Counted from the stretch's first letter, positions 24,078 through 41,879 are shown. The stretch is 41,879 bases of DNA from Promethearchaeota archaeon (GCA_019058295.1 JAHPZI010000016.1:58021-99899), one strand, 5' to 3'. Notes: a model not told the origin generated them from the sequence alone. Numbers and translations: made by a program.

Positions 24078-25895
24078 TTATCGTTTTCTTTTTAATTCAG
24101 CTAAAAGTTTCTCAGCATACTTCACAGTCTCTGCATGTTTAGTTTTCCATTTTCTTACTTCTTCTTCTAAATCTGATATATTATTTTTTAATCTTAATAG
24201 ATCCTCATCACTCGTAGCACTAGATTGCGGCATTTCTATTTCTTCCTTTTCCTTTAGTTTAAGATAGTTATATTTCTCTTTCCATACTTGAATTTCTGTT
24301 TTTAATTCTTTTATTGCCTCACTTTCATCCCCACTAAGAGTTGTAATACCCTTTTCCCCGCCTAAAGAAGCCGTTTGTAATCTCAATGATTCTACCTCCT
24401 TCTCAAGTTCTTTGATTCTTATCTTAAGTTTTGCGATTTCATCCATATAATCAGTAGCAGTCTTTGGTTTTTTCATTTCTTCGAACATTGATTTACCAGA
24501 TTCCAATTCTTCTTCCGTTTTCTTTCCTAGGATTTTATCTCTTCTTTTTTGCAACTCTTCTACTGTTTGTTCAGACAAGAAATCGAGCGGATTGAATCCT
24601 ACACCACCGTGCTTGGTTAATCTACGCCTCACCTTGACGAAAAGTGGTATACCCACTACAGCCTCCCCGCAAATTATACCTTCACCTTTATCTAGTCCAG
24701 AGATATCACCTTCATTTTCTTTACTCAAATCTTCAGCTGACTGTATTGTTATTCCGATATCTCTTACATCAGAGAGATTATGTACCACCCAAGTACCACT
24801 CTGAGCTCGAATTGTAACGTCTAAAAGTTGAGGACGCTGCGTACCAATTACTAAATTGGCGCCGAACTTTCTACCTTCCTGCGCAAACAATTTTACTACT
24901 TCAGATGTTTCAGTTTTCTTTTTTCCAGCAAATAAATGAGCTTCATCTAGAAATAAATAAAACGGAGGGATCTCTCGGCCAGTACTCGCTTTATATAACT
25001 TATTAAGAAGTTTCCCGGCTATAACCTCTTGAACTTCTAAATCGAGCCCTCTCATATTAATAATGGAACACAATCGTGGAGCAACTATATCTGTCGCCTC
25101 TAATGAGAAGAGATATTCAATGTCTACATCTCCACTAGGATTAATCTTTAGATCCGTAAATTCAACAATGTTATCAGCAAATTCACTTGCTCTTTCATCT
25201 TGAATCTTAGGAGCTTCTTCTGTAATATCTGTTTCTAGACTCTTGCCACAATGCTGACAAGTATTAGCATCTTCACTTACTTCTTCACCACACCAAGGGC
25301 ACACTCCTGATTTAACCGCAAAGGAAGCTGGTTTTTCTGCATCAATCTCTTCACTTGCGACTTTCAGGGATCCATATTCACCATGCCTATCAAGGATAAC
25401 CACAGGAATCCCTTTTTTCATGAATTCTTCGCAAAGCACACCCATAGTATAAGACTTACCGCTTCCAGATTTTCCAGTAATAAAAATACGACCAAAATTT
25501 TTTACTAAAAGATTAACTTCAAACCCATAACCAAGCAATTTACCTAAAGAAATTGATCTCTCTGGAGGGTTGAATATACCGAGTACTTTACTAATTTGTT
25601 CCATAGTAGCTAAATATACTTCACTTCCCGGTTCGAAAGGCTTTTTTGGACGTTCACCTAAGGCCATTAAATCGGCTTGCATGCCTTTCTTGTCAGTCCA
25701 CATCTCCAGAATACTCAATATATAATAATCCCTTGTCCCGTCTTTTTTTTCTTCTCCATAAATCGTAAAATAATTATTTCGTGAAACATTAGGATTTGTT
25801 ATAATCATACTTACTTGAGAAATTGTAGTTTTCCCAGTTAATCGCCCAACAGGTTCTCCAGCCCCTTCAATCAAATCTTCTCCTTCATCCGACAT
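24078..25895 (-). CDS. HerA/FtsK-like (DUF87) ATPase with zinc-ribbon insert and C-terminal coiled coil
   Basis: Walker A GKSGSGKS, ILDRHGEY, Walker B LFLDEAH, QEGRKFG, GTQRP; CPWC-x-CQHC insert; heptad-rich C-terminus. Confidence 0.88.
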   Translation of the reverse strand: MSDEGEDLIEGAGEPVGRLTGKTTISQVSMIITNPNVSRNNYFTIYGEEKKDGTRDYYILSILEMWTDKKGMQADLMALGERPKKPFEPGSEVYLATMEQISKVLGIFNPPERSISLGKLLGYGFEVNLLVKNFGRIFITGKSGSGKSYTMGVLCEEFMKKGIPVVILDRHGEYGSLKVASEEIDAEKPASFAVKSGVCPWCGEEVSEDANTCQHCGKSLETDITEEAPKIQDERASEFADNIVEFTDLKINPSGDVDIEYLFSLEATDIVAPRLCSIINMRGLDLEVQEVIAGKLLNKLYKASTGREIPPFYLFLDEAHLFAGKKKTETSEVVKLFAQEGRKFGANLVIGTQRPQLLDVTIRAQSGTWVVHNLSDVRDIGITIQSAEDLSKENEGDISGLDKGEGIICGEAVVGIPLFVKVRRRLTKHGGVGFNPLDFLSEQTVEELQKRRDKILGKKTEEELESGKSMFEEMKKPKTATDYMDEIAKLKIRIKELEKEVESLRLQTASLGGEKGITTLSGDESEAIKELKTEIQVWKEKYNYLKLKEKEEIEMPQSSATSDEDLLRLKNNISDLEEEVRKWKTKHAETVKYAEKLLAELKRKR

Positions 25896-28990: not shown

Positions 28991-29500
28991 TTATTCTAAC
29001 GATTTCAAACCTTCTTTTGCTTGCTCATTATTTGGATTAATCTCAAGAACTTGCTTGTAACATTCAATCGCTTTCGGAGAATTTTGTAATTCTTTATAAG
29101 AATCTCCCATAATTCTAAGTACAGCCTCGTAGTTAGGTCGAACATTAGGCGTTTTAGGATCGACTTTAAGGGATTTCTCTAAACTTTTTATGGCTTCCTT
29201 ATAATTCTTTAAGTGATAAGAAGAGAACCCTACTCCATACCATGCAAGAACAAAGCTGGAGTCGACTTTAACCAATTTTTTATATGTTTCATATGCTTTT
29301 TGATAATTTTCTAAACTTAAATAAGCAGATCCTGTGTTATATAACGCCATACGAAGCTGCTGTTTATCTTTTAAACCGAGTTTAATCGCATTTTCATAAC
29401 TTTCAATCACTTTTTGATAATCTTTTGCTCTAAAATGAGCCCCTCCATCTCCGTACCAATATTCAGCATCTTTACCGTCTATTTCTTTAGGCATTTTCAA
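28991..29500 (-). CDS. TPR-repeat protein
   Basis: Four TPR units, e.g. AWYGVGFSSYHLKNYKEAIKSLEKSLKVDP, AIECYKQVLEINPNN. Confidence 0.92.
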   Translation of the reverse strand: MKMPKEIDGKDAEYWYGDGGAHFRAKDYQKVIESYENAIKLGLKDKQQLRMALYNTGSAYLSLENYQKAYETYKKLVKVDSSFVLAWYGVGFSSYHLKNYKEAIKSLEKSLKVDPKTPNVRPNYEAVLRIMGDSYKELQNSPKAIECYKQVLEINPNNEQAKEGLKSLE

Positions 29501-29648
29501 TATAACCCTTTAAATTTAAATTTCTTATTAATGCTAAAATTATTTCTTTTTCATTGTTTATAAAGTTATTTTACTAAGATCTTCTTATTTCTATCGGTTT
29601 TACTGGTACGGATATTGACACCCATCATGGAGACTATGTAAGAGTTCG

Positions 29649-29672
29649 TAAATTTCAAAAGACAAATTTTTT
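29649..29672. repeat. 24-bp direct repeat, copy 2
   Basis: Identical to 28950..28973. Confidence 0.85.
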
Positions 29673-29690
29673 CAATACAAACAGGGAGGA

Positions 29691-30140
29691 TTAATTTATT
29701 TTATCTCTCCGTCTACCATAAATAAGATAAGCAATAATTAATATTTCAAAAATTATTGCGGTATACGCGTATCCTGCTGCTGATTGAATCCAAAAATAAA
29801 GTATTAAATTCATACCTAAAATTATTCCAAAAAATATACTATCTAACAGGAATTTAATAAAACAAATAATACCACCCAAAATAATTGCATCTAGTGCCCA
29901 TCTTTCGGGAATTATTGGGGTATCCTTTTCGTATTTCCAAACATATATCGTAAGAAAAAAGAGAGCAATAACGAGATTTACTATAAATAAAATAATATAG
30001 AGAGGAAGATTAAGACTTTTATATAGTTCGTAAGTTGTAAAATCTACGAAAGCTGAACCTGTTATAAACAATGACCATACCCAGGAATCACAACCAAGAA
30101 TTATTGCTACTATTAAAGATTTAAAATTTATTTTTACCAT
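29691..30140 (-). CDS. Hypothetical 4-TM membrane protein
   Basis: Four hydrophobic segments. Confidence 0.75.
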   Translation of the reverse strand: MVKINFKSLIVAIILGCDSWVWSLFITGSAFVDFTTYELYKSLNLPLYIILFIVNLVIALFFLTIYVWKYEKDTPIIPERWALDAIILGGIICFIKFLLDSIFFGIILGMNLILYFWIQSAAGYAYTAIIFEILIIAYLIYGRRRDKIN

Positions 30141-30191
30141 TTAAATAACAGAATAATATTATTATTTAATTTCTCAAAAAAATTATTAAAA

Positions 30192-30407
30192 TTAATCTTG
30201 TGAATTTGTTTGGTTTTTTTTTTGATCGAGATCTAACGCTTCAGTTATCCCTAATTTTTCCTCAACTGAAAGGATTTGAGAATCTTCTAACTCATCACAA
30301 TCTTTTTTATCAAACTCAAACCCGCAAGATGGACAATCAAACGAATCTGTATAATCCACGATATCTTCATTGCCACATCGAGGGCAATGGTATTTTTTTT
30401 CTACCAT
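30192..30407 (-). CDS. Small stand-alone zinc-ribbon protein (TFIIB/TFB-type spacing)
   Basis: YHCPRCGNEDIVDYTDSFDCPSCGFEF followed by an acidic helix. Confidence 0.75.
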   Translation of the reverse strand: MVEKKYHCPRCGNEDIVDYTDSFDCPSCGFEFDKKDCDELEDSQILSVEEKLGITEALDLDQKKNQTNSQD

Positions 30408-30460
30408 CTTATAACGAATAATTAATTAGTAGAGATAGAAGAGTGATATCTTCAAAATAT

Positions 30461-31639
30461 TTAAACCTCTCCATTTTTGTCAATAAGATTTACAATCTCT
30501 TTCACTCTGTTTAAAAGACGTCTTTTGAACTGGGGAAAATCTGTAATCGAAGAAATATTATTAACAGCGTCATTTTCTATCTTTTTATCTATCTCAAGCA
30601 TATAATCGTGATTTTTTATTTTACTTTTAATACCTCCTAACAAATCGTTTGGAATGTTCAACTTATTAAAAATACGCTTAAAGTCAGAAACATCGATGTC
30701 ATTAAGTGTATGTCCCGTACTTTTCATATGAACCCAATCAATTAAGAACTCTTCTGGAATATTAACAGACCAATGATGATTCCTTAAATAATTATAGAGT
30801 TTATGCGGAGTATGTAGCTGTTCTAATTCTAAATTACTAGGATTTACATTTAGGCTTCGATATTGATAAAGCAACTGAACGAATTCCCTTCCTACATCAT
30901 CATTTTGTCCTACAATAAATCTGAATTCATCAGAATAGTCTTTCAATTGCTTCTTGCTTTTGTTAATCGGCTTAAAATTCTTTTTAGATTGGTAAAATCT
31001 ATAATCAAATTCAGGAAAATCAACTTTAAAGTACAATCCGGTGAATTTCATAATTTTAGGCCAAAACTTAGGATCATAATCCTCTAAAATCATAGGAAGA
31101 TTTCTCATTTCAGGGTCTTTATTAACTTCGCTAAACAACCTGGTGGCGGTAGATTTTATTTTTTGAATTTTATCTTGTAATACCTCTACAACATTTTTAG
31201 AATCAGCAATTAAATGCTCTTCAAAGGATAAGTCAGTATGTCTGGAGTTATAATTGATAAACTTTTTAGTTTTTTTATTGTAGAACACAAAGGAATCGCT
31301 ATTAGCAAGAGAACTTACATCTTCATTTGTATTCAGGATACAGTGTATATCCGATAGTTGCATAACCTCCTTAACTTTTTTACGATCTAAGTTATAAATG
31401 AAGAAAAAGGATCTATTTTGAGAATAAGAATTAAATGCCTCAAACTCAATAATCTCTCTTATGTTATTTAAAGCCGTGGTTTCTAAATCTATTGCATTAT
31501 ACCCTACTGTAAAACACTCCAATGCATGTAGATGCTTCAAATCGACATAGGGAAATATCACTAGGTTTTTCTGCTCAAAAAAAAGAATGTTAAGAAATTC
31601 TGGTTGAATAAAATCCGATCCTGTGTCCAAATTTCTCAC
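30461..31639 (-). CDS. Hypothetical protein (392 aa), third gene of the roadblock-GTPase operon
   Basis: Long ORF with GTG start, 15 nt downstream of the GTPase stop; no recognisable motif. Confidence 0.8.
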   Translation of the reverse strand: MRNLDTGSDFIQPEFLNILFFEQKNLVIFPYVDLKHLHALECFTVGYNAIDLETTALNNIREIIEFEAFNSYSQNRSFFFIYNLDRKKVKEVMQLSDIHCILNTNEDVSSLANSDSFVFYNKKTKKFINYNSRHTDLSFEEHLIADSKNVVEVLQDKIQKIKSTATRLFSEVNKDPEMRNLPMILEDYDPKFWPKIMKFTGLYFKVDFPEFDYRFYQSKKNFKPINKSKKQLKDYSDEFRFIVGQNDDVGREFVQLLYQYRSLNVNPSNLELEQLHTPHKLYNYLRNHHWSVNIPEEFLIDWVHMKSTGHTLNDIDVSDFKRIFNKLNIPNDLLGGIKSKIKNHDYMLEIDKKIENDAVNNISSITDFPQFKRRLLNRVKEIVNLIDKNGEV

Positions 31640-31654
31640 TTATAATTTTATAAA

Positions 31655-32323
31655 CTAATCTTTGGAATTAAAATAATTGTATATGACTTGAAGTACTATG
31701 TCTTCAAAGCAATCAACTACATTCTCACCATGTAAAGCACAAGTAGGGTAAACAACTTTAGATCCGTCAGGATACACATCCTCTAAAGGTAAACCAAGTA
31801 ACTTTTTGAAATCTTTAACAGAAATAGCATTATCTATGTCTTGTTTATTCAACTGTACAACAAAAGGAATGTCTTTAGGTTTAGCAAAATTAATAAGTTC
31901 CCGATAACTGCGTCTATTTTGCTCCCTTTTCTTAGGATCAGAATCGCCAACAAATACTATTCCATCAGCACCGTCAAGGACATATTCTCTAGTGGACAAA
32001 AACCTCTCCTGTCCTGTACAAGTGACCACTTGGGTTATGATGCTATAACTAATATCGTTAATGTCAAAATTAAATGTTAGAAAGAGAGAGTCTTGCCATA
32101 AGGTTCTACCAAAAGTAGTTTCAATGGAATATCCTTTAGTTAATCTGATAAAATTAAACTTTTCACGCAGCCTCATAAAGTTAGTAGTTTTTCCAGACTC
32201 ACCAGGACCCCAATAAACTATCTTAAATTGAATTATTCCTTCGGAAGAAACAAAAGTTACTTCGCTGAAGGTTTCTCCTTTATTTTTAGTAGAGTCGCTA
32301 GAATCTTTAGGATCTATTAGAAT
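31655..32323 (-). CDS. MglA-like small GTPase (extended to include the P-loop; non-canonical start)
   Basis: The frame extends 49 codons upstream of ATG 32176: ILIDPK...IQFKIVYWGPGESGKTTNF (G1). Also GRTLWQD (G2, intrinsic Arg), TCTGQERF (G3), LDGADGIVFVGDS, NKQD (G4), TCA (G5). Confidence 0.9.
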   Translation of the reverse strand: MLIDPKDSSDSTKNKGETFSEVTFVSSEGIIQFKIVYWGPGESGKTTNFMRLREKFNFIRLTKGYSIETTFGRTLWQDSLFLTFNFDINDISYSIITQVVTCTGQERFLSTREYVLDGADGIVFVGDSDPKKREQNRRSYRELINFAKPKDIPFVVQLNKQDIDNAISVKDFKKLLGLPLEDVYPDGSKVVYPTCALHGENVVDCFEDIVLQVIYNYFNSKD

Positions 32324-32337
32324 TCAAATCGCCTCGT

Positions 32338-32892
32338 TTAAGAAATTGTGCTAATCTTATCTCCAAAAATCTCCTTTTTAAGCCTTTTAATATGAGCTTT
32401 AAGTTCGTTCTCAGTCATTTTTAAGGTATTCTTAATTGAACTATTCCTCTCTATCTCAGATTTAATCTTGTTTGCAAATCTGTTCATCTGCAGAAGAATC
32501 ACTCCAATATTTACATCCTTATCAGCTAAAATTACAATAAGAACTTCTCTTACCGCTCTTCTCTCGTTAATGGATACTTCTCCTATAGACTTTACAAATA
32601 ACTGTAAATTGTTATATATCATTGCCGCTCTTTCCAAGTAGTCTGTCTCGAAAAAATCTTTACCTTGTCGCGCCACGCCATATAACGCAGCACCGATTGA
32701 GCTTAGATCCCAATAATTCAACTGTCGGTCAAACCTAGAATCAATCGCTATTATCTTTGCATCTTGGTCAATTGCGATCAAGCCGTAAATATATCCTTTC
32801 CTGGTGAGTATTCCATAACCATCTCGAATTTCGTCTAAAACATCAGTTATTTTATTTTCATATAAAATTTTTGGTACGGTATTAATTGTCAT
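32338..32892 (-). CDS. Roadblock/LAMTOR (MglB-like) domain protein
   Basis: IYGLIAIDQDAKIIA...LSSIGAALYGVARQG...LIVILADKDVNIGVILLQMNRFA is a roadblock pattern; lies directly upstream of the MglA-like GTPase. Confidence 0.8.
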   Translation of the reverse strand: MTINTVPKILYENKITDVLDEIRDGYGILTRKGYIYGLIAIDQDAKIIAIDSRFDRQLNYWDLSSIGAALYGVARQGKDFFETDYLERAAMIYNNLQLFVKSIGEVSINERRAVREVLIVILADKDVNIGVILLQMNRFANKIKSEIERNSSIKNTLKMTENELKAHIKRLKKEIFGDKISTIS

Positions 32893-32942
32893 TTTATTTT
32901 AAACCATTTTTTAGTTTTCTTAAGATGAAAATATTTTTTCAG

Positions 32943-32957
32943 TATTTAAAGAAAAAA
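32943..32957 (-). promoter_or_regulatory. Shared promoter motif TTTTTTCTTTAAATA (T-rich element plus TATA), 50 nt before the roadblock ATG
   Basis: Exact 15-mer also at 39714 and 41807. Confidence 0.6.
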
Positions 32958-32967
32958 TTAAATTTCT

Positions 32968-33915
32968 TCAATTAATTTCATTAATTTTATTTAGAATGCT
33001 TTTACTATGCAAATTTAAAACTTTATCTTGTAAATACTTATCAAACTTAATTAAAACATTATATAATTCGATATTATCTCCAACTGAAATGGTTTTGGCA
33101 CATTCAAGAGATTTTTCATTCCAAGCGTTGATTAAAATTGTAGAAATACTATCGGATAAAGTAAATTTAAGTAAAAGCTTAATATCTTTGTTCTTCTTAC
33201 TTTTAATCGGTAAAATAGGTTGAATATCAAGAATTTTTCCCCTAATTCTTCCACTGAAAAATCCCTCGTATTTGTGTAGATCGGCGATGGAGGTAAACTC
33301 TATTATTTTGGATGCATTTTTATTTGGTGAGAAATTACCTATAGTTTCATCAAGCTTAAGTATTCTTGAATAATCAACGTCTTCAGGGGCTAAAATGATC
33401 TTTCCGTTAAAACCGACATGTAATTCCATTCTTTCAGTATTATTGTATTTATTTAGCTTACATTGATTGGATATAACGCGCACTACTTCGTTAAACTTAA
33501 AGAATTTACTTTCAGATAGCTTTACATTATTGACTCCCCATAAAACAACTTTGCACTCTCCTGTATTATCACTAATAATAAAGGGTCTAAGAACATCGGG
33601 TGTTCCGTCTTTACGAATAAAGTTATGTGTGGGGAAAATTTTTTTAATCCGACCTAAAACGACAATGTTTGTCATGCCTTCTGTGAGTTTTGAAATATCT
33701 ACTCTAAATTCCTCATAATCAATCTCAGTTTCTTCACCTACACCGGAACTAATTGAGAAAGAACCAACTTCTAAGCCTAATTCTTTAGCTAAAAAAAACA
33801 ATGCTGTCTCTTCTGACATAAAATCTCTAAGTTCTTCAAGTCTTTGTTGAATATCATCATTATTATAACCCGCCTGTAAAATTAAATCAATTATATCGTC
33901 TACATGAGACCCCAT
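32968..33915 (-). CDS. RPA/SSB-like OB-fold ssDNA-binding protein (two OB folds)
   Basis: N-terminal helical domain (EETALFFLAKELG); OB1 IVVLGRIKKIFPTHNFIRKDG...ISDNTGECKVVLWG...ELHVG; OB2 IRGKILDI...LSDSISTILINAWN. Confidence 0.85.
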   Translation of the reverse strand: MGSHVDDIIDLILQAGYNNDDIQQRLEELRDFMSEETALFFLAKELGLEVGSFSISSGVGEETEIDYEEFRVDISKLTEGMTNIVVLGRIKKIFPTHNFIRKDGTPDVLRPFIISDNTGECKVVLWGVNNVKLSESKFFKFNEVVRVISNQCKLNKYNNTERMELHVGFNGKIILAPEDVDYSRILKLDETIGNFSPNKNASKIIEFTSIADLHKYEGFFSGRIRGKILDIQPILPIKSKKNKDIKLLLKFTLSDSISTILINAWNEKSLECAKTISVGDNIELYNVLIKFDKYLQDKVLNLHSKSILNKINEIN

Positions 33916-33936
33916 TCTTAATTTACCACTTCAAGA

Positions 33937-34524
33937 TCAAATGTATTTAGTTAAATTTAATTTGTTTCGAGCTCTGTGGAATGCATAAGCAGAGCAATTA
34001 CACAGCACTCTTATGTTTTTTTGAAGAATTTTTGGTTTAATTTTGCTTTTTTCATCAGTGATGTAAATAACTAAGGCAACTTGAGTTGTTAATTGTGGCC
34101 AAAAAGATGCCAACTTAAGCAACTTATGTAAAGCCTCTAAATTTACCCTCGCTCGTCTATAACTGAACACAGGAGCGATACGGTGAATTGTATGCAAGTG
34201 AGATCTAACTCGACAAAGTAATTTTTTAGGCTCATGAGACCACTTAAAGTTGCTATTCTGAACTATCTTTATATGGCATGCGGTTTCCCAAAAAAAATTG
34301 TGAATTTTTGACTGAATTAAACTTGGTTTAAAAGATGAAAAATCTCTGGAAATCTTTTCAATATAATACCGTGGTATCTTTGTTAAAAGTTGACCATTGT
34401 TATCTAAAATAGAAAAATGCCTAAATATTGAATTCAGAACTAAATACTTTAAATTCTTTTCGTTAAACTCAGGTTCTGGCATAAGGGTGCCCGACCTAAG
34501 GATTTCTTTCGTTATGTCACTCAT
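33937..34524 (-). CDS. Hypothetical protein with TFB/TFIIB-like C-terminal cyclin-HTH repeat, no zinc ribbon
   Basis: PQLTTQVALVIYITD...ILQKNIRVLCNCSAYAFHRARNKL aligns by eye with the TFB consensus P.GLAAAALYIA....[24 protein letters not shown]. Confidence 0.5.
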   Translation of the reverse strand: MSDITKEILRSGTLMPEPEFNEKNLKYLVLNSIFRHFSILDNNGQLLTKIPRYYIEKISRDFSSFKPSLIQSKIHNFFWETACHIKIVQNSNFKWSHEPKKLLCRVRSHLHTIHRIAPVFSYRRARVNLEALHKLLKLASFWPQLTTQVALVIYITDEKSKIKPKILQKNIRVLCNCSAYAFHRARNKLNLTKYI

Positions 34525-34590
34525 ATTAAAAAAACCAATTTAAGTTTAGATCTTATTATTTTGTCCATTTATAAATAAAAAAAAAGAAAC

Positions 34591-35685
34591 TCAAAAGATA
34601 GCATCTAAAGTTTTTTGAATTAAAGTTGAATAACCTTGATCAGATTTAAAGAATTTAAGACATCGATGGTAGTTATCGACTACTTTATTTATGTTATTTT
34701 CTACGCGCTCTTTATTTAAATGATGATCTTCACACATTAATTCAAAAACTTGTGATTTATTTGGAAGATCCCACCTTAGATCATCAAAAGAATTTGAAAC
34801 TTCAGGAAGTAAAAAAATTTTTCTAATGTATGAGATTAATTCTGAATCTAAGCTTGTAAAATCATAGTTCTCTTTTTCCGCAGAAATGATATTCTCTAAA
34901 TTGTGATGGTTTTCTAACAATTTTAAAGCTGTTTTAGGACCAATGCCTTTTATTCCCGGAAAATAGTCTGTTCCAATCAAGATAGCTAAATCGACTAACT
35001 GAAATATATCTAAGTTCAGCCTTTTTAAGTTCTGCTCTAAATTAATACTTAGAGGAACAATTTTCTGGTAATTCCATTTATTTTGAACTTTCCTTCTTAG
35101 CGATTTTGAAAGATTTTGAATGACTCTTGGGCACCCAAATAATAATGAATCAAAATCCTGCGAATTGGAGTAATGGGCAATGCCTTCTTTTACTAAATGG
35201 GCACATTGAGACTCAGCAGAAGCGGGAGAGTCAAGCCAAGGTACTCCTAAAGCACTTAACAGTTTTCTCGATTCTAAAAGAATGTTTGGCCATAAAAATT
35301 CTTTACTAGTAGCATAATACCTCGCTAAATTTCTATCGCCTGATTTTAAAGCATCTCGATACCATTTTGAAATAAATCTAAAGTCATTTAATTGGTCTTT
35401 TGTTACAATCCGCTTTAGATCTGATATCCTCCCGTCAAAACAAAAAATTGGAAAGATCTTTTTGGAATAATAAAAATTTATCCTGAACAAAATTCCATAT
35501 AAATGAGAAATTGCTCGCTGAGTGCGATCTGTCATCATTTCTTCATAAGAATAGATCTTATTTTTATAAGAGAAGTTAAAAAGCCCCATAATAATGTTTG
35601 GAGCATCAATTGTGATAATTTTTCCTTCTAACTGAGAAAAATCTACCTTTTTTCGCTTAATTATCTGTTGTAATTTAATTCCCAT
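34591..35685 (-). CDS. fen: Divergent flap endonuclease 1 (FEN1/XPG family) with C-terminal PIP box
   Basis: MGIKL start, IDAPN, SHLYGIL, CFDG, SPASAESQ, SQDFDSLLFG, GTDY.PGIKGIGPKTA, QKTLDAIF PIP box. Confidence 0.9.
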   Translation of the reverse strand: MGIKLQQIIKRKKVDFSQLEGKIITIDAPNIIMGLFNFSYKNKIYSYEEMMTDRTQRAISHLYGILFRINFYYSKKIFPIFCFDGRISDLKRIVTKDQLNDFRFISKWYRDALKSGDRNLARYYATSKEFLWPNILLESRKLLSALGVPWLDSPASAESQCAHLVKEGIAHYSNSQDFDSLLFGCPRVIQNLSKSLRRKVQNKWNYQKIVPLSINLEQNLKRLNLDIFQLVDLAILIGTDYFPGIKGIGPKTALKLLENHHNLENIISAEKENYDFTSLDSELISYIRKIFLLPEVSNSFDDLRWDLPNKSQVFELMCEDHHLNKERVENNINKVVDNYHRCLKFFKSDQGYSTLIQKTLDAIF

Positions 35686-35709
35686 TATCATATACTTACA
35701 ATTCAGAAT

Positions 35710-35724
35710 TATTTAAGAAAAAAA
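35710..35724 (-). promoter_or_regulatory. Variant shared motif TTTTTTTCTTAAATA, 24 nt before the FEN1 ATG (leaderless spacing)
   Basis: Divergent intergenic region, so not an upstream terminator. Confidence 0.55.
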
Positions 35725-35810
35725 TAAGAAAAAGATATTGCACCCAATCTTAATTTTTCCTTTAAAAACAACTAAATTTATTTAATATTAAAAAGAATAA
35801 GTGATTCTAA

Positions 35811-36176
35811 ATGCCATATAAAAGCGATGTAATAATAATTAAAAAGGAGAATAAAAAATCTAGTGTAATCTTTTGGATATTCTTTGGAATTATAGGATTT
35901 TTAGCGATATATTTTCCTCTTTTTGGATCTAATTTGAGATTCCAGACAGGCGCGCTGTTATCAAAGGCTTTTACAACTGTAGGAACGATCTTAGTTACTT
36001 TTGGCGCTCTAATGTTTGTCTGGGGTCTTTTTACACTATTTTGCGGTAAATCAGGTTCAGGGGTTAAGGTAATGATTTTAGGTTTTGTTATGGTGTTTCT
36101 TGGGAGTTATTTCATTAATCCGGCATTATTAGGTGTCGGTAGCACAGGAAAAGAAGTTCCTAAAGGATACCACTGA
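35811..36176 (+). CDS. Small 3-TM membrane protein, possibly VirB2/TrbC/CedA-like pilin
   Basis: TM1, then Gly-rich helical hairpin TVGTILVTFGALMFVWGLFTLFCGK-SGSG-VKVMILGFVMVFLG; pilin resemblance by eye only. Confidence 0.6.
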   Translation: MPYKSDVIIIKKENKKSSVIFWIFFGIIGFLAIYFPLFGSNLRFQTGALLSKAFTTVGTILVTFGALMFVWGLFTLFCGKSGSGVKVMILGFVMVFLGSYFINPALLGVGSTGKEVPKGYH

Positions 36177-36225
36177 ATAAATTGGATTCAGAATATATAT
36201 AAGTTAGGATTGAATAAAGGTTTTT

Positions 36226-36450
36226 TTAATGTATGCGAAAATATTTTAAGCCTCTACCATAACCACCGCATAAGCTCAAAAGGATAATTGATATTATAAT
36301 TAAGGTTACATAACTGACTCGATACTTTGAACCTCCCCAAATAAATAGAATTATCCCAAAAACAAGACCTAACAATCCAATAATAGATCCTAGCGCTAAT
36401 AGATATTCAATTCCTTCGCCTATAGAATCAAAATAACCTGAAAATATCAT
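36226..36450 (-). CDS. Small 2-TM membrane protein, possibly pilin-like
   Basis: 74 aa, YLLALGSIIGLLGLVFGIILFIWGG-SKYR-VSYVTLIIISIILLSL; own promoter motif. Confidence 0.65.
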   Translation of the reverse strand: MIFSGYFDSIGEGIEYLLALGSIIGLLGLVFGIILFIWGGSKYRVSYVTLIIISIILLSLCGGYGRGLKYFRIH

Positions 36451-36474
36451 AGTAAATTATACTATATCCTTATT

Positions 36475-36488
36475 TATTTAAAGAAAAA
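36475..36488 (-). promoter_or_regulatory. Shared motif TTTTTCTTTAAATA, 24 nt before ATG 36450
   Basis: 14-nt match; divergent intergenic region. Confidence 0.6.
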
Positions 36489-36496
36489 TTTCGCAG

Positions 36497-36513
36497 TTTT
36501 TTTCTTTTAAATA
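36497..36513 (+). promoter_or_regulatory. Variant motif TTTTTTTCTTTTAAATA, 48 nt before ATG 36562
   Basis: Back-to-back with the 36475 copy. Confidence 0.45.
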
Positions 36514-36561
36514 AGGCTAAAAGAATCAAAATTAACAAAAAATTATTGGGAAAATTATATT

Positions 36562-36879
36562 ATGAAAAAAATCGAAGAGATTGGAGAATGCCCTAATTGT
36601 GATTGTTCATTATACATTTACAAAACGAGTAATTATAAACGATTTGCTAAATGTGAAATTTGTGGATATTCATACCCATTACCTAAAAGTGGTGTGATTA
36701 GCAATTCTGCAATGTTTTGCCCTCAAAAAAGAGTACCTATATTAATCGTAGAGAAAAAAGACCAGAAAGCATATTTTTGGACTGACTGTCCTTGCTTTAC
36801 TTGCATTAAAGCTGATAAATGTGAACAAATAAACGAACTTATAGCGGAATTTGAAGAATTAAAGGTGTATGGATATTAA
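36562..36879 (+). CDS. Stand-alone topoisomerase IA C-terminal-type C4 zinc-ribbon protein
   Basis: IGECPNCDCSLYIYKTSNYKRFAKCEICGYSYPLPKSG...CP...PILIV matches the TopA Zn-ribbon repeat pattern. Confidence 0.7.
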   Translation: MKKIEEIGECPNCDCSLYIYKTSNYKRFAKCEICGYSYPLPKSGVISNSAMFCPQKRVPILIVEKKDQKAYFWTDCPCFTCIKADKCEQINELIAEFEELKVYGY

Positions 36880-37954
36880 AAAAAAAATAATGTTTATATT
36901 AATAATTTCTTTAGTGTTTGTAAGTTTTATTATATATCTTAATTTTGTAAATAGCAGCAACAGTGATTTAAGCCACGATACTGAAGATTGTATTAATATT
37001 AATAGTGAATCGATTGATTCATTAAAGGTAAGTGATTTAGAACTGCCTGATAAAGTTTATACTTTTCTTGCGGGTGCTGATACGAAAAATTTCGAACTCT
37101 ATCTGGAAAAACATTATACATATTTAATATATATTGAACTAGTAACGCCTCATAATATAACGAATATGAAAATTTGTATATGGGATCCGGATGGTGAAGT
37201 TTTTAAAATATTTGAAAGTGAAATGTTTTTTAATCCTGAGTATGGAAGATTTTTTGAAATACCTTTCGGAACTGTAATGTCAGGAGATTATATTTTTGAA
37301 TTTTGCGCAAACGCACCGACCAACTTTAATCTTCATATCATAATAGAACAAGGACCTGAATGCCTACACGATAAAATAGACTCACAAGAGCCTGATAATA
37401 TAATATTATACAAAGTAAACAGATTTAGTAATGGAGATTATATTGACCATGATGTTGATTTGGAAACCGATATGATGTATAAATTCTATATTGGGAGAGT
37501 TTCTGCGATTGCGATAACACAAAATAACGAGGTAAGGATAACTTATAAAATAGAAGATCCTAACGGTATTGAGTTTGATATTTATAACAACGAGTTAATT
37601 GCTGACATAGATGGATTAAATTCTTTTTCTTTTGGTACAGCTATAGAAGGAGAATATATAATTAAATTAACAGTCTATTGTAATGTTCCAAATGTTAATA
37701 TTGCCTATGTTATTGTCGAAGATTATGAAATTGGTGATGTTATCGATGCCAACGAAACTAAACCAGTAGAATCAACTTCATTTATAGAAGAAGCTGAAGA
37801 AGAATTAGATGATGCCTCTGCTAATTTACCCACTGAAATGGTTGTTGGAACGTTAATATCTGTATTTGGAATTAGTGGAGTAGCATTAACGGCTTTGATG
37901 GTTCATCGAAAAAGATCTGGTGTCGATGTTAATATAAGAAAATTGCATAAATAA
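36869..37954 (+). CDS. Extracellular protein with N- and C-terminal TM anchors and two repeated beta-sandwich domains
   Basis: Internal repeat LEKHYTYLIYI...DPDGEVFKIF...FGTVMSGDYIF / LETDMMYKFYI...DPNGIEFDIY...FGTAIEGEYII; C-terminal TM plus HRKR. Confidence 0.8.
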   Translation: MDIKKKIMFILIISLVFVSFIIYLNFVNSSNSDLSHDTEDCININSESIDSLKVSDLELPDKVYTFLAGADTKNFELYLEKHYTYLIYIELVTPHNITNMKICIWDPDGEVFKIFESEMFFNPEYGRFFEIPFGTVMSGDYIFEFCANAPTNFNLHIIIEQGPECLHDKIDSQEPDNIILYKVNRFSNGDYIDHDVDLETDMMYKFYIGRVSAIAITQNNEVRITYKIEDPNGIEFDIYNNELIADIDGLNSFSFGTAIEGEYIIKLTVYCNVPNVNIAYVIVEDYEIGDVIDANETKPVESTSFIEEAEEELDDASANLPTEMVVGTLISVFGISGVALTALMVHRKRSGVDVNIRKLHK

Positions 37955-38032
37955 TCTTTTTTTGTTTTTCTTAACTTTATATTTTAAATTAGTCTTTATC
38001 TAAAAAAATCCAAAAGGTAAGTTTGAGTAAAA

Positions 38033-38404
38033 ATGAATGATTCTGATCTACATAATCTTAATGAAGCAAGGATAAAGACTCACATTCATAGCATTTTACA
38101 GAATATTAAGGAACTTGAAAGAAAAAAGTTCCAAGGAGATAAGATCAATTACTTAGCCAATATATATGTGAGCATGTTGGTCTTAGAAGATTATTATCCT
38201 GATATTTATGACCAATGTAAAAAAGAACTCGGCATAGACTACAAGGAATTAGTTGATTTGATCAGAAAAAATACTCCAATCTTGCCGTTGAATGAGATAA
38301 AATTGTTAGAGGGAATAATTAATAGAAAAATTGAGGAAATTATTAAAAAAATTCCTGAAATTAAAGAATTTATATTAAGATATTTTAATATCAATCTTGA
38401 CTAA
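38033..38404 (+). CDS. Hypothetical helical protein
   Basis: 123-aa ORF filling an intergenic gap. Confidence 0.65.
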   Translation: MNDSDLHNLNEARIKTHIHSILQNIKELERKKFQGDKINYLANIYVSMLVLEDYYPDIYDQCKKELGIDYKELVDLIRKNTPILPLNEIKLLEGIINRKIEEIIKKIPEIKEFILRYFNINLD

Positions 38405-38450
38405 TATAATAAATTAAAAAAGAAAATAAAAGAAATATAAAAAAATAATT

Positions 38451-39665
38451 TCATACTAATGTTTTAGCAGATTCTTGCATCTCTAACACTTTTTTAGGAG
38501 ATAATCCGCTAATTTGAGAAGCTATATCTTCTGGATCTGCCGTCAGTAAATCATCTACGCTTTTTATACCCAGTGAACTAAGGTTATTTGCAGTTCCCTT
38601 ACCAATTCCTTTCACGTTTGTCAGCGAAACTCTGCTAGAATCTTCTTGCTTACTGCTTTCCTCATAAAGAGTTTCGACCTCGAAATCCAATACAGGGGCA
38701 TCCACGGATGGCATCTCAACTTTATCAGTATCGGCAATTCCGGCAGAAGTTATAAAAAATTCACATTCTTCGGGGGGTAAATCGGGAGCGTCGACTATTA
38801 TGGCCCTTCGTTTCAATGAATTATTAGAAGAAAAGCCCTTTGTCTTAAACATTACCCTAAAATGTGCGGCGTGAGCTAATATATTCCCACCGATAGCATC
38901 TTCGGAAGAAAACATCCCCATCATTTTGACTGTCACTTGATTCGTAAGCAACACAGCACAATTATATGTCTCTGCAATCCTTGATAAAGCGTGAAGCATG
39001 TTATTAAGAACACTCTGACGTTTTGCTAACACTCCTATACCTACATACTCCGCACGCATAAGGGACATTAAGCTATCTACCACTATCAATCTTACATTAC
39101 GGGTTTTACACATAGTCTCTGCTTTCATTATCATCTGTGCTTGATGATCTGAACTATAGATCCTGGCGTGATAAATTTTAGAAAGAACTTCAGAAGGATT
39201 AAGTCCAAATCTTTTTGCGATACGCTTAATCTTCTCTTTTGAAAAGGTATTTTCTGTATCAATATATACTACAGCACTTTCAAGCCCCCCTCGTTTTTTA
39301 GGTAATTGAACTGTGACTGATAAAGTATGAGCAAGATTAGTTTTACCAGATTTAAATGGACCATAAACTTCTGTTAATTTTCCAGTTTGAAATCCGCCGC
39401 CTAAAATTCTATTTAATTCAGAGGAACCAGTAGTCATAAACTCGACATTCTCATCAATATCTGAAGCAGTAACAAAATCAGTCATTCCTAAAGCGTTTCT
39501 TGCGTTCCATATTAGTTTTTTTGCAGTTTTCTCTCCAAGTCCATCGATTGAAGACACTGATTCACCATTAGACATTGCTAAAGCTTCGGCAGTACTAATG
39601 CCATTTTCTTGAAGTAGTTTTATCTGCCGAGCGTTAATTCCTTTAATTTGACTAAGATCTGACAT
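38451..39665 (-). CDS. radA: RadA/Rad51-family recombinase paralog with additional C-terminal HhH domain
   Basis: N-terminal HhH domain, FxxA (FVTA), TTGSSELNRILGGG, Walker A GPFKSGKT, YIDTENTF, Walker B LIVVDS, RAEY, TNQV, GGNILAHA; C-terminal LTNVKGIGKGTANNLSSLGIKSVDDL. Confidence 0.9.
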   Translation of the reverse strand: MSDLSQIKGINARQIKLLQENGISTAEALAMSNGESVSSIDGLGEKTAKKLIWNARNALGMTDFVTASDIDENVEFMTTGSSELNRILGGGFQTGKLTEVYGPFKSGKTNLAHTLSVTVQLPKKRGGLESAVVYIDTENTFSKEKIKRIAKRFGLNPSEVLSKIYHARIYSSDHQAQMIMKAETMCKTRNVRLIVVDSLMSLMRAEYVGIGVLAKRQSVLNNMLHALSRIAETYNCAVLLTNQVTVKMMGMFSSEDAIGGNILAHAAHFRVMFKTKGFSSNNSLKRRAIIVDAPDLPPEECEFFITSAGIADTDKVEMPSVDAPVLDFEVETLYEESSKQEDSSRVSLTNVKGIGKGTANNLSSLGIKSVDDLLTADPEDIASQISGLSPKKVLEMQESAKTLV

Positions 39666-39713
39666 TTTTTTTTCAATAAAATATAATTATTTAATCTTAG
39701 GTAAAACTCTGAA

Positions 39714-39728
39714 TATTTAAAGAAAAAA
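39714..39728 (-). promoter_or_regulatory. Shared motif TTTTTTCTTTAAATA, 48 nt before the radA ATG
   Basis: Exact 15-mer copy. Confidence 0.6.
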
Positions 39729-39737
39729 TATATAAAT

Positions 39738-39837
39738 AAAAAAAAAGAGTAGAAAAAGAAAAATAAAACGCTACTGACAAGGAAAGGATACTTGGGGGGA
39801 TTAAGTTGATTGAATGCGTTTTATTACCTTCTTCTAC
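39738..39837 (-). ncRNA. Candidate ~90-100 nt structured small RNA
   Basis: GC-elevated island with paired ends (aataaaacgc 39762-71 / gcgttttatt 39816-25; gtagaa 39749-54 / ttctac 39832-37). TATA (TTTATATA, 39868-39861) lies ~24 nt upstream and a U-tract follows downstream on the minus strand. Confidence 0.45.
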
Positions 39838-39916
39838 GTGACAATTAGATATTTTAAATATATATAAAAAAAAAAAGAAAAATAAAAAAGCTCAGATGTA
39901 AAAATTGAAGAAATTA

Positions 39917-40627
39917 TTAAACAAATTTAAGGCCTGTATCACCTAATTGATATTTAAAACCATAAGTAAAATCTTCGCATTCTACAGTCATTTGATTTCT
40001 CCCATCTCTGAAATCTTTAGATAAAAAGATATTAAGACAATCAATTCTGGAAAATAGCTTATTTAAAAAAGGCAAGATCTTATCTGAAGCTGGGCTATAA
40101 GAAACTTCGTGAATAATAATAAGCTTAATTGATTCTCTTTCGCAAAACATAATGAGGGGATATAGTTGCTCACTAAAAAATGGATTTACAAGAGCAGAAT
40201 ATCCGCAAAAGCCTTCAGCTTTCATGATTTCAAATCTTAAATAGTGTGATATGTTATCAATAACGATAAATTTCAAATTATAAGGAAGAATTGAATTTTT
40301 CTTGACAAATTTACTAATAACATCTGCTTGTTGAGAATATGACATGCATGGTCCATCAGAAGGAATTACAAAAATATTTTTAGTCAAATAATCTAATTTA
40401 CTAGGCTTATCCTTAAACATTTGATATAATCTTTGCTTAGAAAAAGCTTCACTTGCTTGAAACCATACACAGCAATCCTCGTAAGGCTCTGAGTATGTTA
40501 AAAGGGTCCCAATAACCTGCAATGATAAAGTAGATTTACCCGTTCCGGAAGCTCCATATATCGAAATAACAGCCTTTCGTGAAAATAATCTATTAAAATC
40601 AGTAAAAACTTTATCTTGAGTTATCAT
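39917..40627 (-). CDS. RadB/Rad51-paralog-like RecA-fold ATPase (core domain only)
   Basis: ISIYGASGTGKSTL, WFQASEAFSKQRL, Walker B FIVIDNISHYLR, IIIHEV. Confidence 0.8.
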   Translation of the reverse strand: MITQDKVFTDFNRLFSRKAVISIYGASGTGKSTLSLQVIGTLLTYSEPYEDCCVWFQASEAFSKQRLYQMFKDKPSKLDYLTKNIFVIPSDGPCMSYSQQADVISKFVKKNSILPYNLKFIVIDNISHYLRFEIMKAEGFCGYSALVNPFFSEQLYPLIMFCERESIKLIIIHEVSYSPASDKILPFLNKLFSRIDCLNIFLSKDFRDGRNQMTVECEDFTYGFKYQLGDTGLKFV

Positions 40628-40631
40628 AAAT

Positions 40632-40988
40632 CTAATTTTCTAGTAGTTCAAGAATTTGTCTTTTAGTCCTTTCAATTTGTTCTTCCCTATCATCGGGCTC
40701 ATCTTGATAAAAATCGTTATACTCTTTACTGGAAGTTGAGTTAATCAATTGTTGGGCAACAACTAAGGTAACTAAATCATCCACTCTATTATCCCTTAAA
40801 GAATTGCTACCTTTAAAAAAACCTCCCCGCCCTTCCTTACGTCTCCCCTTTCTTGCTTTAAAAAACAAGTAAAGAGCAAGAAAAATTACAACAATAACTA
40901 CGGTTATTACAGGATCTTTCTGATAATACATCAAAAACGCAATTATCAACACAAAAAATAAAAATATTTTCATTTTTTTCATCACCAA
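40632..40988 (-). CDS. Small 2-TM membrane protein with helical cytoplasmic tail
   Basis: Two N-terminal hydrophobic helices; overlaps the upstream stop and sits 4 nt from the downstream start. Confidence 0.75.
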   Translation of the reverse strand: MVMKKMKIFLFFVLIIAFLMYYQKDPVITVVIVVIFLALYLFFKARKGRRKEGRGGFFKGSNSLRDNRVDDLVTLVVAQQLINSTSSKEYNDFYQDEPDDREEQIERTKRQILELLEN

Positions 40989-41785
40989 TGAGGTTCTTCT
41001 ATTCCTAATTTATAAGGTTTAGCTGGTTTAAACCTTTTCCGAGTAAATGCTCCAAGCTTGACTCTATTAGACGTACTTAATCCTTCAGACCGAGACAAGA
41101 AAATTAATTTGTTAATACCCCTAAATAGATATTTAAGAATAAAATATAAAAAGCCAATAATCACGAAGTATAGAAAATTAAAAGCTAGTCTGATATTATA
41201 ATACGTAGTGATTAGCCATATTGACAAACCAGATAAAAGTACTAAAAAGATTTGATATATCGAGTAACGAGGATCGCTTTTAAAAGAGGCAACCATAGTT
41301 ACGAAATCTTGGTGAGAAGGAGCAGCTCCCATTAATAATGAAGCACAAAATAAACCTGCTAACACTCGAATAAAATCGTCAAATGAGGGAGTTAAAACAA
41401 TGGAGAGGGACCAAAAGAAAAGCCAAGTAGATATATACAAAGGCGCAAAAGTAACCATGAAATCTTGCATAAAAGACATTTTTTTATCGTTTTTTAAAGA
41501 GACAGAACCGTGAGGGTTGACTTGCCTTGTAACTTCGTCTAAAAGTTTTACTTTAATTTTGTCTGTTGGAACACCAAGAAGTTTGCATATGAGAAAATGG
41601 CTAAGCTCATGAACTATAACACCAACAAACGCTAAACCATTTACAATATGCCTAAACGGACCTATTTTATTACGAGCACGCATTAATATACTCCACAATG
41701 CATATGATACAATAAAAGCTAATGGAAGAATAATCAAAGGACCAAACATAGGATCAAGTAATAAATAAATCAACACTTCGAGCAT
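40982..41785 (-). CDS. Membrane zinc metalloprotease (M50/M50B-like, HExxH)
   Basis: GVIVHELSHFLIC within TM context, FAPL, APSHQD; multiple TMs. Confidence 0.75.
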   Translation of the reverse strand: MLEVLIYLLLDPMFGPLIILPLAFIVSYALWSILMRARNKIGPFRHIVNGLAFVGVIVHELSHFLICKLLGVPTDKIKVKLLDEVTRQVNPHGSVSLKNDKKMSFMQDFMVTFAPLYISTWLFFWSLSIVLTPSFDDFIRVLAGLFCASLLMGAAPSHQDFVTMVASFKSDPRYSIYQIFLVLLSGLSIWLITTYYNIRLAFNFLYFVIIGFLYFILKYLFRGINKLIFLSRSEGLSTSNRVKLGAFTRKRFKPAKPYKLGIEEPHW

Positions 41786-41806
41786 GAAAAATAATACTTA
41801 CGAAGT

Positions 41807-41821
41807 TATTTAAAGAAAAAA
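41807..41821 (-). promoter_or_regulatory. Shared motif TTTTTTCTTTAAATA, 21 nt before ATG 41785
   Basis: Exact 15-mer copy. Confidence 0.6.
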
Positions 41822-41879
41822 TAAGGATTGGGTACCAAATTCAGTGATGATTCGATGATTTAATCATAATTTGTGTAAT

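Follow-up and report, generated by a model that had tools for sequence, protein, structure and literature searches.

This study concerns a gene island in a stretch of DNA of 41,879 nucleotides (nt) from a Promethearchaeota archaeon (GCA_019058295.1, JAHPZI010000016.1:58021-99899); the whole stretch is called the window. A conserved accessory gene island has its left two-thirds in the segment from 30,192 to 41,821, and its genes include those for a divergent RadA paralog (RadA-C), a divergent FEN1 of the Fen1-2 type, and an RPA-like protein. We regard it as rather probable that the island is one transcriptional regulon with a second, divergent toolkit for homologous recombination and repair. 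Judging from the predicted enzyme set, recombination or repair appears to be its best-supported theme. The genome of the window (G000) has a size of 3.2 Mb, and its assembly is 79% complete; G001 and the following numbers designate relatives, and f1 and f2 are Loki-type families. Gene calls were based on an open reading frame (ORF) listing and on family scans (Pfam, NCBIfam, PHROG, and PADLOC), together with language-model features (Atlas). A first-pass annotation had recognized RPA, RadA, RadB-like, FEN1, zinc (Zn)-ribbon, GTPase/Roadblock, TFB-like, and membrane genes in this segment, and the ORF listing and family scans placed all of them at the same positions. Of its labels, those of RadA, of FEN1 with an end resembling a PCNA-interacting protein (PIP) box, and of the GTPase were upheld. 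The RadB-like, TopA-type Zn-ribbon, and HExxH membrane protease labels obtained weak matches (the last of them to M50), and Roadblock was indicated by language-model features only.

The regulon is suggested by a promoter element shared by most of the transcription units. The element is a 15-mer, TTTTTTCTTTA[A/T]ATA, which has A or T at position 12 and contains TATA. In the form TTTTTTCTTTAAATA and with up to two mismatches, it is found 15 times in the window, where 4.1 matches would be expected, and none of 100 shuffles reached 15; nine of the 15 matches fall in the cluster. Exact copies of the 15-mer number six in the whole of G000, and three of these are in the cluster. The first-pass claim that most units share one promoter motif was thereby substantiated, as the motif or a close variant is found 18–24 or 42–50 nt before the start codon of eight of the approximately nine units. 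The instances are as follows.

32943–32957, minus strand: exact motif TTTTTTCTTTAAATA, 50 nt 5′ of the Roadblock-like gene
34568–34582, minus strand: motif variant TTTTTTATTTATAAA, 43 nt 5′ of the gene for the 195-amino-acid (aa) TFB-like protein
35710–35724, minus strand: motif variant TTTTTTTCTTAAATA, 18 nt 5′ of the FEN1 gene
35754–35768, plus strand: motif variant TTTTTCCTTTAAAAA, 42 nt 5′ of the gene for a 121-aa membrane protein
36475–36489, minus strand: motif ATTTTTCTTTAAATA, 24 nt 5′ of the gene for a 74-aa membrane protein
36499–36513, plus strand: motif variant, about 49 nt 5′ of the gene for a 105-aa Zn-ribbon protein (exact copies at this place in G022 and G011)
39714–39728, minus strand: exact motif, 48 nt 5′ of radA-C
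41807–41821, minus strand: exact motif, 21 nt 5′ of the HExxH gene

The element is conserved in the relatives, where it lies 5′ of almost every island gene; in G000 and the relatives together, it precedes almost every transcription unit by 20–60 nt. The loci of seven relatives contain 51 promoter-positioned instances, and the flanks of these instances are not conserved. The Roadblock-like gene has the same motif at the same position in G022, G010, G004, and G001, and the orthologs of the 195-aa gene in G022 and G004 are preceded by ATTTTTCTTTAAATA. In upstream alignments of the orthologous radA-C (10 genomes), Roadblock, and fen1-2 genes, the motif stands out as an island of identity amid diverged DNA. 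The exact motif occurs 14–15 times in each of the cluster-bearing genomes G022, G019, and G011, compared with 3–5 times for a control pattern.

The archaeal transcription factor B recognition element (BRE) is purine-rich. The upstream half of the motif is TTTTTTC at the BRE position and is therefore unlike such an element. TTTTTTC precedes only one of the 170 TTTAWATA boxes upstream of long ORFs in G000, and the preceding 7-mers have no T-rich consensus. A generic strong promoter was considered and rejected, as the sequences upstream of TATA boxes in G000 show no such consensus and degenerate matches elsewhere mostly have no downstream ORF. Exact motif sites outside the island were examined in G022, G019, and G011. 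Six of the 19 sites lead into homologs of island genes, namely a Hel308-like helicase gene, a Roadblock-like gene next to Fen1-2, the gene for a 125-aa Zn ribbon, a DUF1922 fragment, the gene for a helix-hairpin-helix (HhH) protein, and a membrane protein gene. Most of the remaining sites have short or no downstream ORFs. The motif thus goes along with dispersed island genes and therefore matches the prediction of a regulon.

Two further motif-bearing loci were noted. One is a second module, into which others of these sites lead, encoding a ThiF-family E1-like protein, a PP-loop ATPase (QueC/argininosuccinate-synthase-like), and two 390–420-aa proteins with weak GNAT matches (L058, G022:C62:1-10000; L060, G011:C158; and L033 3254–9230, G016:C35). 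In G016 it adjoins the recombination island. The other lies in G000 (L054, G000:C28:102000-117000), where the motif variant ATTTTTCTTTATATA is found 5′ of the gene for a 233-aa protein of unknown function (2896–3726, minus strand), which is divergent to a CoiA-nuclease-domain gene (3961–4662, plus strand). Homologs of the 233-aa gene are located beside RadA-C in G038 and beside an island remnant in G007.

Synteny was investigated by tblastn of all window ORFs against the loci around RadA-C orthologs. Fourteen genes, from the 392-aa gene to the HExxH gene, are collinear and unchanged in orientation in G022, G011, and G010, which belong to other genera of the same family, and the cluster is thus syntenic across genera. 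The genes are clustered but rearranged, or the cluster is only partly recovered, in G001, G003, G004, G016, G017, G019, and G023. In G038 of family f2, RadA-C, Fen1-2, and the Zn ribbon remain linked. None of the window genes between 1 and 30,140 recur at the RadA-C loci of the relatives; therefore, the island occupies different neighbourhoods. Past the HExxH gene, the relatives encode a 406–419-aa TFB-like protein, a 762–782-aa membrane-anchored prenyltransferase-type toroid protein, and a 191–220-aa protein of unknown function. Further on, the island contains a Hef-like superfamily 2 helicase, a DUF1922 Zn-ribbon protein, and a Hel308-like helicase, and in G022 and G019 also a 640–692-aa HhH protein. 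The flanks in the relatives thus carry repair helicases and a TFB-like gene and not the provirus or plasmid functions that the first-pass annotation had named as a possible refutation. Orthologs of these continuation genes were not found in the G000 assembly.

The predicted DNA-handling proteins and the TFB-like protein of the window are listed below.

32968–33915, minus strand: 315-aa RPA-like protein, N-terminal helical domain and two OB folds (partial RPA-model matches)
33937–34524, minus strand: 195-aa protein, TFIIB/TFB-like cyclin domain in the C-terminal half, no Zn ribbon (fold comparison)
34591–35691, minus strand: divergent FEN1 (Fen1-2 type) with PIP-like C-terminus (XPG_I, E 2e-21)
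38451–39665, minus strand: RadA paralog RadA-C (HhH, RecA core, acidic linker, second HhH)
39917–40627, minus strand: 236-aa RecA/KaiC-superfamily ATPase, RadB-like (TIGR02237 48.6 bits, weak AAA matches)

RadA-C scored 247 bits (E 2.4e-73) with the Pfam Rad51 family (PF08423) and 342 bits with NF003301 (cut-off 259). Its score with TIGR02236 was 307 bits, which is under the cut-off of 361. HHH_5 was detected at the N-terminus and at residues 348–401. The RecA-fold core has Walker A and B motifs, and FVTA in the linker fits the FxxA polymerisation motif. Two canonical RadA copies are present in G000, on contigs C1 (336 aa) and C26 (with an N-terminal Zn-ribbon extension), and the canonical FEN1 is encoded on C19. 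The first-pass proposal that the RadA and FEN1 of the cluster are second copies was therefore correct. RadA-C is approximately 41% identical to either canonical RadA. In a tree of 43 RadA sequences from G000 and its relatives, it stands apart as its own clade (support 100%), whose branch is longer than 3 substitutions per site, and it is not orthologous to the housekeeping archaeal radA. The internal branch lengths of the RadA-C clade resemble those of the housekeeping clade, and this resemblance suggests that RadA-C is under purifying selection. The second canonical RadA (C26:148-1383, minus strand) was noted for its N-terminal extension with a CxxC Zn ribbon and an acidic segment. It has about 410–445 aa in relatives, and this form spans the order.

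The RadB-like protein stays below the RadB equivalog TIGR02237 (48.6 bits against a cut-off of 172.4). It has a Walker A motif (GASGTGKST) and is 34–44% identical to the copies of the relatives. The most suitable name for it is RecA/KaiC-superfamily ATPase.

Fen1-2 scored 276.5 bits with the archaeal equivalog TIGR03674, which is under the cut-off of 351.95. Among the Pfam families, XPG_I passed (76.7 bits, cut-off 24.9), and XPG_N was just under its cut-off of 22 (21.5 bits). The C-terminus contains a PIP-like sequence, QKTLDAIF (QxxLxxxF), and because of this box Fen1-2 probably binds PCNA. Six of the seven carboxylates of the active site are invariant. The first Glu of SEGE is replaced with Ser in all five copies of family f1, in which the alignment shows SPASAESQ versus SSEGESQ in the canonical copy. 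Fen1-2 of family f2 has a eukaryote-like APSEAEAQ.

The RPA-like protein matched NCBIfam RPA models with E values of 4e-21 to 2e-16, far under their cut-offs, and gave weak OB Pfam matches; a Zn-finger OB domain was not seen in it. A canonical RPA of 580–590 aa is encoded by the relatives G006, G007, G022, and G032, and G022 (100% complete) has both the canonical protein and the short island type. In the G000 assembly, no canonical RPA was found with PF08646, PF16900, NF012035, or NF006255. This is probably an assembly gap, because the assembly is only 79% complete and the relatives carry the gene. Separate canonical genes, as the first-pass annotation had expected, thus exist in G000 for radA and fen1, and for rpa they were seen in the relatives.

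Two TFB-like proteins are associated with the island. The predicted fold of the 195-aa protein matches the TFIIB cyclin repeats, in agreement with the first-pass label of a TFB-like factor. It is not a full TFB/TFIIB, which consists of a Zn ribbon, a B-reader/linker, and two cyclin repeats. A Foldseek search of its model against the PDB gave no match at E ≤0.001, with weak cyclin and TFB rows, and a profile search against PDB sequences gave nothing significant. The 406–419-aa protein of the relatives has a weak TFIIB Zn-ribbon match (E 2e-4) and a weak TFIIB repeat match. Its gene does not have the regulon motif and is preceded by its own conserved ATTTAAAAAG-type box. We infer that this larger regulator may be expressed from an ordinary promoter and may then activate the motif promoters. 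An apparently split TFB was observed in G007 (L043, G007:C70, 7266–7968), with a Zn-ribbon ORF and a single-cyclin ORF. It is followed at 8430–10340 by an NAD-dependent (bacterial-type) DNA ligase with BRCT, and both are next to motif-bearing Zn-ribbon genes.

The remaining features of the island are as follows.

30192–30407, minus strand: 71-aa CxxC...CxxC Zn-ribbon protein, left border of the island (ORF listing)
30461–31639, minus strand: 392-aa protein, third gene of the Roadblock-GTPase operon (conserved in G003, G004, G011, and G022)
31655 to about 32260, minus strand: MglA-like small GTPase (Pfam Arf, 42 bits, cut-off 22; listed ORF 31655–32176)
32338–32892, minus strand: 184-aa Roadblock/LC7 (MglB)-like protein (Atlas features only)
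35811–36176, plus strand: 121-aa multi-pass membrane protein (30–39% identity in G010, G011, G017, G019, and G022)
36226–36450, minus strand: 74-aa two-helix membrane protein (45–52% identity in relatives)
36562–36879, plus strand: 105-aa double Zn-ribbon protein, similar to the archaeal TopA C-terminus (NF005555, weak match, E 2.5e-8)
36869–37954, plus strand: 361-aa protein, predicted to be extracellular, with an N-terminal signal/anchor and a transmembrane anchor at the C-terminus (27–53% identity in relatives)
38033–38404, plus strand: 123-aa ORF (no motif; not found at the loci of relatives)
39738–39868, minus strand: stem-loop and U-tract 3′ of the RadB-like gene (fold energy −21.1 kcal/mol, z −3.9)
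40632–40988, minus strand: 118-aa membrane protein with an acidic cytoplasmic tail (conserved in relatives)
40982–41785, minus strand: 267-aa polytopic membrane protein with HELSH within a helix (PF02163, M50, E 0.0068, below cut-off; 26–37% identity)
41806–41879, no strand assigned: multi-copy element ending the contig (the same ~73 nt at four contig ends)

The small GTPase also passes the Ras Pfam cut-off, and its G3 motif is TCTGQ (TxxGQ, with Thr for Asp as in MglA). A P-loop (GPGESGKTT) is in frame at 32177–32260 on the minus strand, 5′ of the listed ATG, and no ATG, GTG, or TTG was found before it. A non-canonical start codon is probable, perhaps ATA or ATT; otherwise, the annotated gene may be truncated. 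The Roadblock-like protein has Atlas similarities of 0.90–0.93 to clusters that partly carry Robl_LC7 or MAPKK1_Int, with Robl_LC7 in 13–41% of their members. It had no Pfam match, and a profile search against PDB sequences gave nothing significant; its identity to the copies of the relatives is 59–77%. The 392-aa protein has no match in Pfam, NCBIfam, PHROG, or PADLOC, no usable Atlas match, and nothing by profile search against PDB sequences, and the pLDDT of its AF2 model is 39. The 71-aa Zn-ribbon gene has a collinear position in the cluster-less G007 and adjoins RadA-C in G001, G004, and G023. The 105-aa Zn ribbon is 55–70% identical in relatives and is linked to RadA-C even in G038 of family f2. 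The 361-aa surface protein had no family match, and its Atlas leads were below 0.9. The 123-aa ORF may be lineage-specific or may not be a gene. Some of the membrane proteins had been called pilin-like; they are only small multi-pass membrane proteins, and a class III signal peptide was not seen on reading the sequences, a point for which no predictor was run. The stem-loop has a 21-bp long-range stem, a 44-nt loop, and a U9 tract, and had no Rfam match. Its slot is occupied by a 125-aa Zn-ribbon gene in the relatives, and no remnant of that gene is present in G000. The stem-loop could be the terminator of the RadB-like operon or a small RNA.

Scaffold C16 consists of three contigs, the last of which is the window, and the window reaches the scaffold end. 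It breaks off within a multi-copy repeat, where both contig and scaffold stop; the right border of the island is thus missing from G000, and nothing past 41,879 is inspectable in this genome. The repeat of about 73 nt consists of a 54-nt block followed by the promoter motif. Its copies are at the right end of C16, the left end of C16 (C16:1-78), the right end of C6 (C6:143845-143915), and the right end of C11 (C11:24482-24554). Each copy points outward into a different gene, namely the HExxH gene, a gene for a 230-aa protein of unknown function, a gene for a 110-aa Zn-ribbon protein, and nrdD-mazG (380 nt off). In the source metagenome, the read depth over the last ~70 nt is about five times the local depth, and G007 has a copy with 82% identity where its sequence is orthologous to C11. 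In our interpretation, the assembly broke at a short promoter-proximal element present in several copies, and the contig end is no terminal inverted repeat (TIR) of a replicon. A circular or TIR-bounded scaffold was considered because the scaffold ends share 54 nt of inverted identity. It was rejected, as C6 and C11 end in the same sequence and a length of 54 would fit an assembly-graph break at k=55, on the assumption that such an assembler was used. Rfam RNA families had no match in 29000–41879 or at the repeat-bearing contig ends.

Some features of the window lie to the left of the island. Two very large ORFs (>1335 aa and 1262 aa) occupy 1–7708 on the minus strand, and the 1262-aa ORF has no Pfam match at E 1e-5. 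A 605-aa ATPase (24078–25895, minus strand), which has a DUF87/HerA domain and an inserted Zn ribbon, is followed by a 571-aa protein (22265–23980, minus strand) with a weak alpha/beta-hydrolase match. No NurA/Mre11/Rad50 context was seen around this ATPase, and both genes belong to the flank that the cluster-less G007 also has.

The distribution of the island is patchy. RadA-C was found in 27 of the 40 sampled genomes of family f1 and in one of three of family f2; the 157 genomes sampled from the other families of the phylum gave no instance. Among 24 relatives in family f1, RadA-C and Fen1-2 occur together in 13, one of them alone in four, and neither in seven. The closest relatives, G007 (99% complete) and G005, are without the island, and their housekeeping RadA is 95% identical to that of G000. 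The window segment 24379–30421 is collinear with G007:C27 at 87–93% identity, through the 71-aa Zn-ribbon gene. Past this gene, G007 has sulfatase, enolase-superfamily, and FrhB-like genes and then matches contig C20 of G000. On C70 of G007, a 77%-identical remnant consists of the C-terminal half of the 392-aa gene and a Zn-ribbon gene, beside motif-bearing small genes, the split TFB, and the NAD-dependent ligase. In the same genome pairs, the identity is 70–77% for RadA-C and 74–80% for housekeeping RadA, and the two agree in the f1/f2 split and in several sister pairs. We favour the view that the island is chromosomal and accessory and is lost frequently; these data also allow transfer within the family.

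In the regulon that we propose, the motif would be read by the island-encoded TFB-like proteins, that is, the 195-aa cyclin-domain protein and the 406–419-aa Zn-ribbon protein of the relatives; therefore, one upstream signal would switch on the whole gene set at once. RadA-C may form strand-exchange filaments with the RadB-like ATPase and the RPA-like protein, and Fen1-2 and the helicases may act on flaps and on branched intermediates. The membrane proteins, the HExxH protein, and the Roadblock/MglA-like switch may couple the programme to a change of the envelope or of polarity, or to the sensing of a signal. Candidate triggers would be DNA damage, replication stress, or a special life-cycle state. 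A more specific version can be imagined, in which a Lokiarchaeia family has a facultative, separately switched recombination programme analogous to the division of labour between Rad51 and Dmc1. RadA-C as a specialised recombinase, the eukaryote-like Fen1-2, the Hef/FANCM-like and Hel308-like helicases, and surface proteins would then be controlled by a private TFB-like factor that reads a variant BRE, and would serve cell-cell DNA exchange or a distinct life-cycle state. We consider this version unlikely.

Several observations weigh against the proposed regulon. The predicted co-induction derives from sequence only. The 406–419-aa TFB-like gene is not in the G000 assembly, and G000 encodes some nine canonical TFBs (17 TFIIB-repeat matches, on contigs C6, C8, C15, C19, C21, and C23), any of which could be the reader of the motif. 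The exact motif is also present in island-less genomes, with six copies in G007 and four in G006. Fen1-2 is without one catalytic Glu and may be no nuclease. Moreover, a third of the island proteins have no recognisable function.

The island might alternatively be, or descend from, an integrated plasmid or provirus with its own recombination-replication module and promoter type, which we consider quite unlikely. Such an origin would be in keeping with the second copies of housekeeping genes, with a private promoter motif of the kind typical of viruses and plasmids, and with the termination at a multi-copy repeat. The island is patchy even within the genus (G006 and G007, 98–99% complete, do not have it), its surroundings are variable, with the sulfatase, enolase-superfamily, and FrhB-like genes in its place in G007, and the RadA-C tree separates G000 from its genus mates with weak support. 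However, among the island ORFs covered by the Pfam and PHROG scans, in the window and in the relatives, there was no integrase, capsid, terminase, primase, polymerase, replication initiator, or partition gene. For the island, this agrees with the first-pass statement that no integrase or capsid gene is visible in the window; a tRNA was not found in the window either, and its GC content equals that of the host. Scans of IMG/VR viral contigs with RadA-C and with the Roadblock-like profile yielded no relative, and a viral origin was rejected on these scans. In addition, the divergence of RadA-C tracks that of housekeeping RadA with the congruence described above, in G001 and G019 the genes are scattered, together with the motif, across chromosomal contigs, and the left-end remnant in G007 suggests loss rather than gain. 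A defence system was also considered and rejected, as PADLOC gave a weak RecA-fold match only.

Other functions can be assigned to a regulon of this composition. By analogy with Sulfolobus, in which a TFB paralog activates ups and ced after DNA damage (PMC6101594), the island may serve DNA uptake or cell-to-cell exchange; the membrane, anchored, and HExxH proteins would form or control a conduit or contact structure, and the enzymes would integrate incoming DNA. The genes for six conserved membrane or surface proteins lie in between those for the DNA enzymes and have the same promoter, and the membrane-anchored toroid protein of the relatives is under the same motif. The patchy, dispensable distribution suits a facultative trait, and elsewhere in G000 a motif-bearing gene adjoins the CoiA-nuclease-like gene. 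We nevertheless judge this function rather unlikely. A VirB4/HerA/FtsK/CedB-type ATPase, a pilus ATPase, a ComEC-like channel, DprA, and a pilin with a class III signal peptide were not seen in the island, either in the window or at the loci of ten relatives. The only HerA/DUF87-like ATPase (24078–25895) is separated from the island by 4.3 kb and belongs to the flank that the cluster-less G007 also has. Furthermore, the membrane proteins match no known family. The motif could also mark a transcription wave linked to the cell cycle or replication, like the TFB2 wave of Sulfolobus, in which a TFB paralog is reported to drive cyclic transcription (bioRxiv 10.64898/2026.09.06.749720). A motif variant and the same upstream repeat precede the anaerobic ribonucleotide reductase/MazG pair on C11 by about 380 nt, and Fen1-2 carries the PIP box. 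However, the long distance to nrdD makes the link uncertain, core replisome genes were not seen under the motif among the sites examined, and a cell-cycle function is not expected to be absent from a third of the family genomes. We therefore consider this explanation very unlikely. A regulon with a second recombination and repair toolkit remains our preferred interpretation.

Two paralogs of this kind, Fen1-2 and a second RadA, have so far been treated only as gene-tree branches. According to one article, Lokiarchaeia have, in addition to the universal Fen1-1, a second FEN1, the divergent Asgard Fen1-2 on a long branch (Nat Ecol Evol 2025, PMC12680538), and the island FEN1 appears to be of this published type. 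In a term search of that article, "RadA" does not occur, the two "gene cluster" passages shown deal with other things, and no genomic context, co-regulation with a RadA paralog, or Glu-to-Ser change of family f1 was found. A second article (Genome Biol Evol 2025, PMC12722695) reports that some Asgard genomes have RadA paralogs in a further clade, which branches separately from the copy that other archaea share. Heimdall-, Njord-, and Gerdarchaeia chiefly define this clade, and Lokiarchaeia do so "less robustly" (PMC12722695). RadA-C likewise branches apart from the housekeeping copy; among the sampled genomes, it was found in two Loki-type families only. The C-terminal HhH domain of RadA-C was not found in a term search of this article ("helix-hairpin" and "C-terminal" have no occurrences). 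The novelty claimed by the first-pass annotation is thus reduced for the two enzymes, while no paper on the island or its promoter was found in full-text literature searches. Our analysis places Fen1-2 and the second RadA in one linked, apparently co-regulated module with a promoter element and candidate initiation factors. The module would be a testable system for promoter selection by TFB paralogs beyond Crenarchaeota and haloarchaea, and for the purpose of a "second" recombination kit. The 15-mer may serve as a genomic marker for more regulon members in uncultured Lokiarchaeia.

Among known systems, the closest functional analogue appears to be the TFB3-dependent damage response of Sulfolobales, a DNA-damage response with ups pili and Ced DNA import (PMC6101594). 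In both cases, a TFB paralog is tied to DNA-damage or recombination genes and membrane proteins, and the factor departs from the standard plan of a Zn ribbon and two cyclin domains. The departures are opposite: TFB3 keeps the Zn ribbon and does not have the cyclin core, and the 195-aa island protein is the reverse. Unlike the TFB3 response, the island has no detected ups or ced homologs, its targets are paralogous recombination enzymes rather than TFB3 targets, and damage induction would apply to it by analogy only. Its targets are also clustered and share a sharp 15-nt element at the TATA/BRE position, whereas the TFB3 response has no defined core-promoter element of this type. The island likewise resembles the SOS and competence regulons of bacteria, as one cis-element would co-ordinate recA-type, ssb-type, and nuclease genes. 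However, the element is located in the core promoter (BRE position and TATA) and not in a repressor operator, and the genes are extra paralogs, with the housekeeping copies outside the regulon.

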